Of a stretch of 17,398 bases of DNA, positions 16,259-17,398 are shown piece after piece. The stretch covers positions 1 through 17,398 of the IMG/VR virus record IMGVR_UViG_2778261177_000007; one strand, 5' to 3'. The translations under genes were made by a program, and so were the position numbers. The notes under the pieces were generated by a model. That model made no database searches, was not told the origin of the DNA, and saw only the letters and a list, made by a program, of their open reading frames with translations. Numbering within the stretch: the first letter of the stretch is position 1; every line of letters begins with the position of its first letter. Source of the DNA: a virus. Taxonomy: Duplodnaviria > Heunggongvirae > Uroviricota > Caudoviricetes.

Positions 16259-16331
16259 TGCACTTTCGTGATCTTACCCACCAATAGTGGACACAGGACT
16301 AAGTGAGTAAACTCTCAACCAGAGGTGACTC

Positions 16332-16631
16332 ATGACAAAACCAGTATCAATCAGCAAGAAGCCCCGTAAACAACATACGCCTGAATTTCGTAACGAAGCC
16401 CTGAAACTCGCTGAACGCATCGGTGTGGCCGCCACAGCCCGTGAACTCAGCCTGTATGAATCTCAGCTTTATGCCTGGCGCAGTAAACAGCAGCAACAAA
16501 TGAGTTCGTCAGAGCGCGAAAGCGAACTGGCCGCTGAAAATGTCCGCCTTAAACGACAACTGGCGGAGCAGGCTGAGGAACTGGCCATCCTCCAAAAGGC
16601 CGCGACATACTTCGCGAAGCGCCTGAAATGA
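16332..16631 (+). CDS. IS3-family transposase OrfA
   Basis: 99-aa product highly similar to IS3 InsE-type OrfA ([27 protein letters not shown]...[15 protein letters not shown]). Confidence 0.9.
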
Positions 16632-17398
16632 AGTATGTCTTCATCGAAAATCATCGGGCAGAGTTCAGCATCAAAGCGATGTGTCGTGTACTTCGGGTTG
16701 CCCGCAGCGGCTGGTATGTCTGGCTCAGGCGTCGTCACCAGATGAGCCTGCGCCAACAGTTTCGGCTCACCTGCGATGCCGCTGTCCATAAGGCATTCTT
16801 TGAGGCAAAGCAGCGATACGGTGCTCCCCGCCTTGCTGACGAACTGCCGGAGTTCAATATTAAAACCATTGCCGCCAGCCTGCGTCGTCAGGGGCTGCGG
16901 GCGAAAGCCAGCCGGAAGTTCAGCCCGGTCAGCTACCGTGCACATGGCCTGCCCGTATTGGAGAATCTGCTGGAGCAGGACTTCAGCGCCAGTGGCCCGA
17001 ACCAGAAGTGGGCGGGTGACATCACGTACTTGCGTACCGATGAGGGCTGGTTGTATCTCGCAGTAGTCATCGACCTGTGGTCACGCGCCGTCATTGGCTG
17101 GTCGATGTCACCGCGAATGACAGCACAACTGGCCTGTGATGCACTGCAAATGGCGTTGTGGCGGAGAAGACGCCCGGAAAGCGTCATTGTTCATACGGAC
17201 CGTGGTGGTCAATACTGTTCAGGGGATTATCAGGCAATGCTGAAGGTGGAATGTATCCACGGGGAACGCTTTAGCAGCCGGGAAATAATGCGGGCAACGG
17301 TGTTTAATTATATCGAGAGTGATTACAATCGCTGGCGTCGTCACAGTGCCTGTGGCGGTCTCAGCCCGGAACAATTTGAAAACCATAATCTCGCTTAG
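16628..17398 (+). CDS. IS3-family transposase OrfB, apparently carrying an in-frame internal deletion of the catalytic segment
   Basis: 256 aa versus about 288 aa expected; has WAGDITYL and HTDRGGQY but lacks the conserved CxDNAxxExFF block between DYQAMLK and VECIHGE. Confidence 0.8.

Follow-up and report, generated by a model that had tools for sequence, protein, structure and literature searches.

An ISEc16 copy lacking the third DDE residue of its transposase, found at a single chromosomal site in Escherichia coli

The right end of the stretch of DNA analysed, 17,398 nucleotides long and denoted here as the window, is occupied by an element which, judging from its sequence, is a copy of ISEc16, an IS3-family insertion sequence of E. 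coli (positions 16269-17398). The orfB gene of this copy is interrupted by an in-frame loss of DNA, and the encoded transposase is devoid of the segment hosting the catalytic glutamate. All the copies of this allele that have been recovered map at one site of the chromosome, in closely related hosts. The element is very probably a defective and immobile ISEc16 relic, vertically inherited at that site. Two further readings, a sequence still moved by transposases provided in trans and a variant selected for regulation, have been weighed against this one, as has the possibility of an artefact.

Layout and ends of the ISEc16 copy

Identity to intact, RefSeq-annotated ISEc16 is about 99.8% in the DNA alignment over the 1130 bp contained in the window, an 84-bp gap aside. 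The name ISEc16 rests on copies labelled by RefSeq/PGAP, which served as comparison sequences. Two intact references were aligned, one from a plasmid of strain 2012C-4221 (L001), the other from the chromosome of strain 536 (L002). Used as query, the window element is matched in 4,543 of the 5,426 complete E. coli genomes. The best megablast matches among these genomes are 99.3-99.8% identical to the query and carry the RefSeq label 'IS3-like element ISEc16 family transposase'. The matches listed are all in two pieces, and span about 1214 bp per 1130 bp of query. The length of the whole element, as measured in carrier contigs, is 1160 bp, versus 1244 bp for intact ISEc16.

The features recognised in the window copy are reported in Table 1. 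IS3, IS911, IS2 and their relatives move by copy-out/paste-in transposition via an OrfAB fusion made by frameshifting, and all the chemical steps need the DDE triad. The genes orfA and orfB overlap here as ATGA, orfB being in phase -1 relative to orfA (phase 0). The N-terminal HTH_Tnp_1 domain of OrfA is well recognised by Pfam (PF01527, E = 7.4e-10, 39.4 bits versus a cut-off of 24.1). The frameshift region is identical to that of ISEc16 copies which RefSeq annotates with 'programmed frameshift'. Within it, the AAAAG motif is presumably the exact slip site, the assignment following what is generally known of IS3. One substitution in orfA apart, no damage is seen in orfA, in the frameshift region or towards the C-terminus of orfB.

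Table 1. Features of the ISEc16 copy, in window coordinates
Feature	Positions	Strand	Remarks
Left copy of the target-site duplication, TCG	16266..16268	.	right copy just past the window end
IRL of ISEc16, starts TGATC	16269..16307	+	39-nt imperfect repeat; identity to intact copies begins exactly at 16269
orfA, 99 aa, HTH_Tnp_1 DNA-binding protein, intact	16332..16631	+	PF01527; 1 substitution vs intact copies
AAAAG motif, presumed -1 programmed frameshift site for the OrfAB fusion	16594..16598	+	-1 frame open from 16577 onward
orfB with deletion, 256 aa vs 284 aa intact	16628..17398	+	integrase-like catalytic domain without the third DDE residue
First catalytic Asp codon, D131 (GDITY), kept	17018..17020	+	invariant alignment column; aligns with the corresponding Asp region of retroviral integrase
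Second catalytic Asp codon, D191 (HTDRGGQY), kept	17198..17200	+	protein alignment and retroviral integrase match
Deletion junction, lone remaining GCTGAAG of the 7-bp direct repeat	17239..17245	+	DNA alignment and string search

The left end of the element (TGATCTTACCC...) is the true start of the left inverted repeat (IRL). The right end is not visible in the window, which terminates at the orfB stop. This had been correctly remarked in a previous reading of the sequence alone, made with no database searches (the sequence-only reading), but the stop marks merely how the window was cut. The cut follows gene borders, and an ORF likewise ends at position 1. A contig break at a repeat was considered as the cause and rejected, because the window starts at a gene border too, and carrier contigs run through the element. 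As the same reading had proposed, the right inverted repeat (IRR) was sought downstream. In other contigs with the same allele it is intact, and is reached 30 bp past the orfB stop. In the carrier locus L003 the repeat corresponds to positions 6763-6801, outside the window. IRL and IRR form an imperfect pair of 39 nt, 77% complementary, of the type TGATC...GATCA (5'-TG and CA-3' ends), and both are identical to those of the intact ISEc16 copies. In ten out of ten carrier loci the orfB stop is followed by GGCCGTGTCCACATTACGTGGGTAGGATCA and then by TCG, a trinucleotide found also before the left end.

The deletion in orfB and its consequences for the transposase

The alignment of the window copy to the two intact ISEc16 copies features one 84-bp gap. 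The gap apart, only 2 mismatches to the closest intact copy were found over 1130 bp. In intact ISEc16 the missing 84 bp are bracketed by the heptamer GCTGAAG, in the arrangement ...AATGCTGAAGCGACAC...(84 bp)...TTCGCTGAAGGTGG, or, in a wider context, ...CAGGCAATGCTGAAGCGACAC...(84 bp)...CATTCGCTGAAGGTGGAATG... The corresponding tract of the window copy reads ...CAGGCAATGCTGAAGGTGGAATG..., and a single GCTGAAG is left. The sequence of the deletion junction in this allele is GGCAATGCTGAAGGTGGAATG. Such a footprint is the classic one of slippage between short direct repeats. Both GCTGAAG repeats encode Leu-Lys in the same frame; the in-frame result is therefore automatic, and is no sign of selection. 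The two differences from the closest intact copy both alter the encoded residue, Ala becoming Thr in OrfA and Asn becoming Ser in OrfB. Since these are the only two, and both alter the protein, there is no sign of purifying selection.

Four proteins have been aligned for comparison, namely the window OrfB, the intact ISEc16 OrfB (284 aa), the IS3 InsF of E. coli K-12 (288 aa) and the OrfB of a second insertion sequence hosted in the window. The window OrfB lacks 28 residues, including the conserved YDNA...ESFF block and the third DDE residue. In intact ISEc16 OrfB the Glu of VESFF is found 36 positions past D191, which is the DD(35)E spacing. The sole Glu in the vicinity in the window protein is E208, within LKVE. 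It is located 17 residues past D191, versus the 36 of the catalytic spacing, and its counterpart in the intact proteins is the conserved glutamate of LKxE rather than the catalytic Glu. While D131 and D191 are both present, the segment with the Glu is deleted, and the D, D, (35) E triad is consequently incomplete. Pfam analyses are in agreement. The rve domain is recognised in the window OrfB (E = 1.6e-25), but the match ends at model position 88 of 102, and that to rve_2 begins at position 6 of 56. Intact ISEc16 OrfB matches rve from 2 to 102 and rve_2 from 1 to 56, the latter match beginning at the VESFF Glu.

The sequence-only reading had described an IS3-like element whose orfB lacks the catalytic segment, removed by a clean in-frame deletion together with the third DDE residue. 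The list of ORFs, the DNA and protein alignments and the Pfam matches all confirm this description, the loss being a single 84-bp gap. The estimate of an OrfB about 30 residues short was right as to the shortfall, the exact figure relative to intact ISEc16 being 28. Alignment to the OrfB proteins of IS3 and of the IS911-like neighbour, along the lines envisaged in the same reading, identified the deleted segment as the block of the catalytic Glu. The retention of this Glu elsewhere in the protein, which the reading had contemplated, is contradicted by the identity of E208.

The window copy is thus a member of the IS3 family by descent, but, from what its coding capacity indicates, not a functional one. 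Because the deletion in OrfB removes the third DDE residue, the transposase is presumably inactive, and the copy would be unable to transpose by itself. The IS2 transposase has an RNase-H-like core, whose strands beta-1 and beta-4 host the two Asp and whose helix alpha-4 hosts the Glu; substitutions in this catalytic core, including proline adjoining the Glu, abolish even DNA binding (PMC3219604). In ISEc16 the deletion would take out strand beta-5 and the start of alpha-4, between the helix ending in ...DYQAMLK and what remains of alpha-4. A search of PDB by sequence found no IS3-family structure on which the deleted segment could be mapped. Only weak matches to retroviral integrases were obtained, which cover the two Asp and stop before the Glu.

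Chromosomal site, distribution and neighbouring elements

By exact look-up, the 256-aa protein was found in 24 contigs of E. coli assemblies and metagenomes. The comparison of carriers covers ten of these 24 contig places, plus one metagenome contig carrying the junction (n=11). All 11 recovered copies are inserted at one chromosomal site, with the same flanks and the same TCG duplication, between the remnant of a tail-fibre-assembly gene and a McrBC-like gene pair. The upstream flank common to the carriers includes an inverse-autotransporter gene, an esterase gene, an IS911-like element and the tail-fibre-assembly gene remnant. In the common downstream flank the McrBC-like pair is followed by ymgL-, DUF1398-, MlrA-like and BLUF/EAL genes. 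From the gene order of K-12, the locus is taken to be an e14-like prophage remnant. Between carriers no more than 9 SNPs were counted in 4.5 kb of flank, no more than 8 in 5.9 kb (<=0.2%), and no more than one in the element. The 4.5 kb found upstream in the window are identical to those of L003 (GCA_902840805.1). Carrier contigs of 98-463 kb continue across the element without a break.

The 3-bp target-site duplication TCG is present on both sides of the element in the 11 loci. The reconstructed empty site is matched in one piece, with no interruption, by 52 complete E. coli genomes. In E. coli ML35 this site reads ...ACTTTCGAGAGTGTAT..., and hosts one TCG only. As TCG flanks both ends of the element, and is single at the empty site of ML35, a normal ISEc16 insertion took place here. 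The internal deletion probably followed the insertion; a deletion occurring in the donor copy just before insertion is less likely.

Neither an exact 48-mer nor a degenerate 29-mer detected the junction in GTDB, represented by one genome per species. The junction is similarly absent among the best matches listed from 5,426 complete E. coli genomes and 72,556 plasmids (PLSDB), all of them in two pieces and spanning the additional 84 bp; beyond these matches a diverged copy of the junction could still lie. No ISEc16, either intact or deleted, was found at this insertion site in the complete E. coli genomes, in which the best coverage stops at the IS boundary and only empty sites are seen. A mobilised, non-autonomous derivative (MITE-like) would be expected at more than one location; the recovered occurrences of the deleted form are all at the one site described.

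A second IS3-family element is located at 14823-16080 on the minus strand, 188 bp upstream of the ISEc16 copy and in opposite orientation. Its orfA is IS911-like and is accompanied by the motif A AAA AAG, and the element is 99.6-99.7% identical to E. coli copies found elsewhere (99.7% to the copy aligned). At base 15141 a GAC to GTC change replaces its second catalytic Asp, turning HSDQGSQY into HSVQGSQY. Since the carrier L005 keeps GAC, and is the most divergent of the carriers compared, this Asp-to-Val mutation probably arose after the ISEc16 deletion. Catalytic lesions are hence present in both of the two adjacent elements. A match to the Rfam family isrC, an Hfq-binding sRNA, was detected at 15890-16012 on the minus strand (135 bits versus a gathering score of 39). 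It falls wholly within the IS911-like orfA, near the 5' end, and the 'sRNA family' is here IS sequence.

The first 8737 bp of the window are a lambdoid or e14-like prophage remnant. The genes recognised in it encode a tyrosine integrase (1-1143, minus strand), an exonuclease, a Bet recombinase, a cI-like S24 repressor and a homologue of replication protein O. Of the structural genes, only a tail-fibre-assembly fragment is left, at 16055-16258. Directly after the replication genes, and inside the prophage remnant, a 1302-aa inverse autotransporter of the intimin/invasin type is encoded on the plus strand (8987-12895), with IAT_beta, Big_1 and Invasin_D3 repeats. The protein scores well below the cut-offs of all the named NCBIfam intimin and invasin models. 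Between this gene and the IS cluster, a 347-aa alpha/beta-hydrolase, esterase/lipase-like, is encoded on the minus strand (12932-13975). Past the window, a McrBC-like pair adjoins the ISEc16 relic in L003 (7102-10175), and encodes a 651-aa DUF8425/AAA_5/McrB-lid protein and a 373-aa McrC. The homologous McrBC-like region of strain ML35 is itself broken by another IS3-family element. The intact ISEc16 of E. coli 536 (L002, 1501-2744) lacks a matching 3-bp duplication, the flanking triplets being ATC and TAT, and lies directly beside a truncated gene for the microcin exporter mchF; an IS-associated adjacent deletion is suggested for the ISEc16 of strain 536.

Origin of the allele and comparison with known insertion sequences

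The reading preferred here involves few steps. An intact ISEc16 inserted by ordinary transposition into the e14-like prophage remnant, duplicating the target TCG. The 84 bp enclosed by the GCTGAAG repeats inside orfB were then lost, probably by replication slippage or by a microhomology event. According to the RNase-H-like architecture of IS3-family and retroviral DDE enzymes, the 28 residues removed would correspond to strand beta-5 and to the start of helix alpha-4, with the catalytic glutamate. The OrfAB fusion, if still made, would be unable to coordinate metal ions for cleavage and strand transfer, and would probably be misfolded. The allele seems since to have been inherited vertically in one closely related E. 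coli group. The neighbouring IS911-like element would later have gained its own catalytic Asp-to-Val mutation, and in-place decay seems to affect the IS cluster in its entirety. As a point against this reading, the frame is open, and orfA, the frameshift region and both ends are untouched, so that a product able to some extent to bind DNA or to multimerise could still arise.

It is improbable that the copy is a still mobile, non-autonomous element, moved in trans by the OrfAB of an intact ISEc16 or IS3 located elsewhere in the cell. In favour of this, IRL and IRR are the same as in intact copies, and E. coli genomes commonly contain ISEc16 and IS3 (4,543/5,426 complete genomes match the query). 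The ten contig loci and the metagenome contig, however, all feature one site and one TCG duplication, and the long contigs running through the element hint, though weakly, that no second near-identical ISEc16 copy is present. IS3-family transposases, moreover, act preferentially in cis, which also counts against movement in trans. No sign of such mobilisation was seen among the 11 recovered loci, in one genome per GTDB species, or among the best matches listed. The suggestion, made from the sequence alone, that the element is likely non-autonomous holds weakly, in that both ends are intact; the mobilisation in trans which it may imply found no support.

A variant selected for regulation is very unlikely. 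According to this view, a dead OrfAB, predicted to keep the HTH and multimerisation regions, would exert a dominant-negative effect on ISEc16/IS3 transposition. The in-frame nature of the deletion fits, as does the fact that orfA, the C-terminal part of orfB and the frameshift region are intact. A precedent is also provided by IS911, of which C-terminally truncated OrfAB derivatives are reported to bind the IS ends (PMC1636345). Yet the in-frame outcome was set by the repeats, and by chance alone would occur one time in three. The allele goes back to one event, and is limited to one locus and to a narrow clade, while both differences from the closest intact copy alter the protein. A core beta strand would be lost, and core mutations in IS2 abolished DNA binding (PMC3219604); the adjacent insertion sequence is decaying too. 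It is scarcely to be expected that the deleted OrfAB is still made, and so folded as to bind the ends of ISEc16/IS3 or poison multimers, keeping related IS3-group elements in check in this lineage of E. coli as a resident dominant-negative inhibitor. The truncated regulatory variant proposed in the sequence-only reading is left without support, given one site, closely related hosts and too few substitutions to show selection.

An assembly or sequencing artefact, such as a collapsed repeat leading to a false 84-bp gap, has nothing specific in its favour, although a 7-bp repeat could in principle mislead an assembler, and is effectively refuted by the identical junction in independent NCBI, ENA, Logan and JGI assemblies from different samples.

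The defective, vertically inherited relic remains by far the favoured reading, and what it describes is not novel. ISEc16 is a catalogued insertion sequence, the inactivating lesion is of a common kind, and the protein sequence is already in public databases. In the literature, ISEc16 was found in passing mentions in genome surveys only. The biological weight of the case is accordingly little, as it adds another insertion sequence dying in place. Two practical aspects deserve mention. The protein bears the public label 'IS3 family transposase' despite the missing catalytic residue, so counts of 'active' insertion sequences based on annotation would be too high. In addition, the unique 84-bp junction and the fixed insertion site form a practical marker of the E. 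coli lineage in which they occur.

With ISEc16 of E. coli 536, 2012C-4221 and many other strains the window copy shares IRL, orfA, the frameshift region and orfB, and also IRR as seen in carrier contigs; its insertion gave a 3-bp duplication. It differs for the 84 bp missing from orfB, corresponding to 28 aa that include the DDE glutamate. IS3 of E. coli K-12 (insE/insF) has the same organisation, an OrfB 86% identical over the aligned residues and, when the ISEc16 gene is intact, the same DD(35)E block. It is nevertheless a distinct insertion sequence, whose InsF exceeds the intact ISEc16 OrfB by 4 residues, owing to an unrelated indel close to residue 75, and has not lost the catalytic segment. 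Insertion sequences that are internally deleted or otherwise defective are common as pseudogenes in enterobacterial genomes. The window copy resembles them, as a once active element which a small deletion, between short direct repeats, silenced where it was and which has been vertically inherited since. The only special point of the ISEc16 relic, in respect to these, is that the deletion is in frame, and that the product is still automatically annotated as 'IS3 family transposase'.
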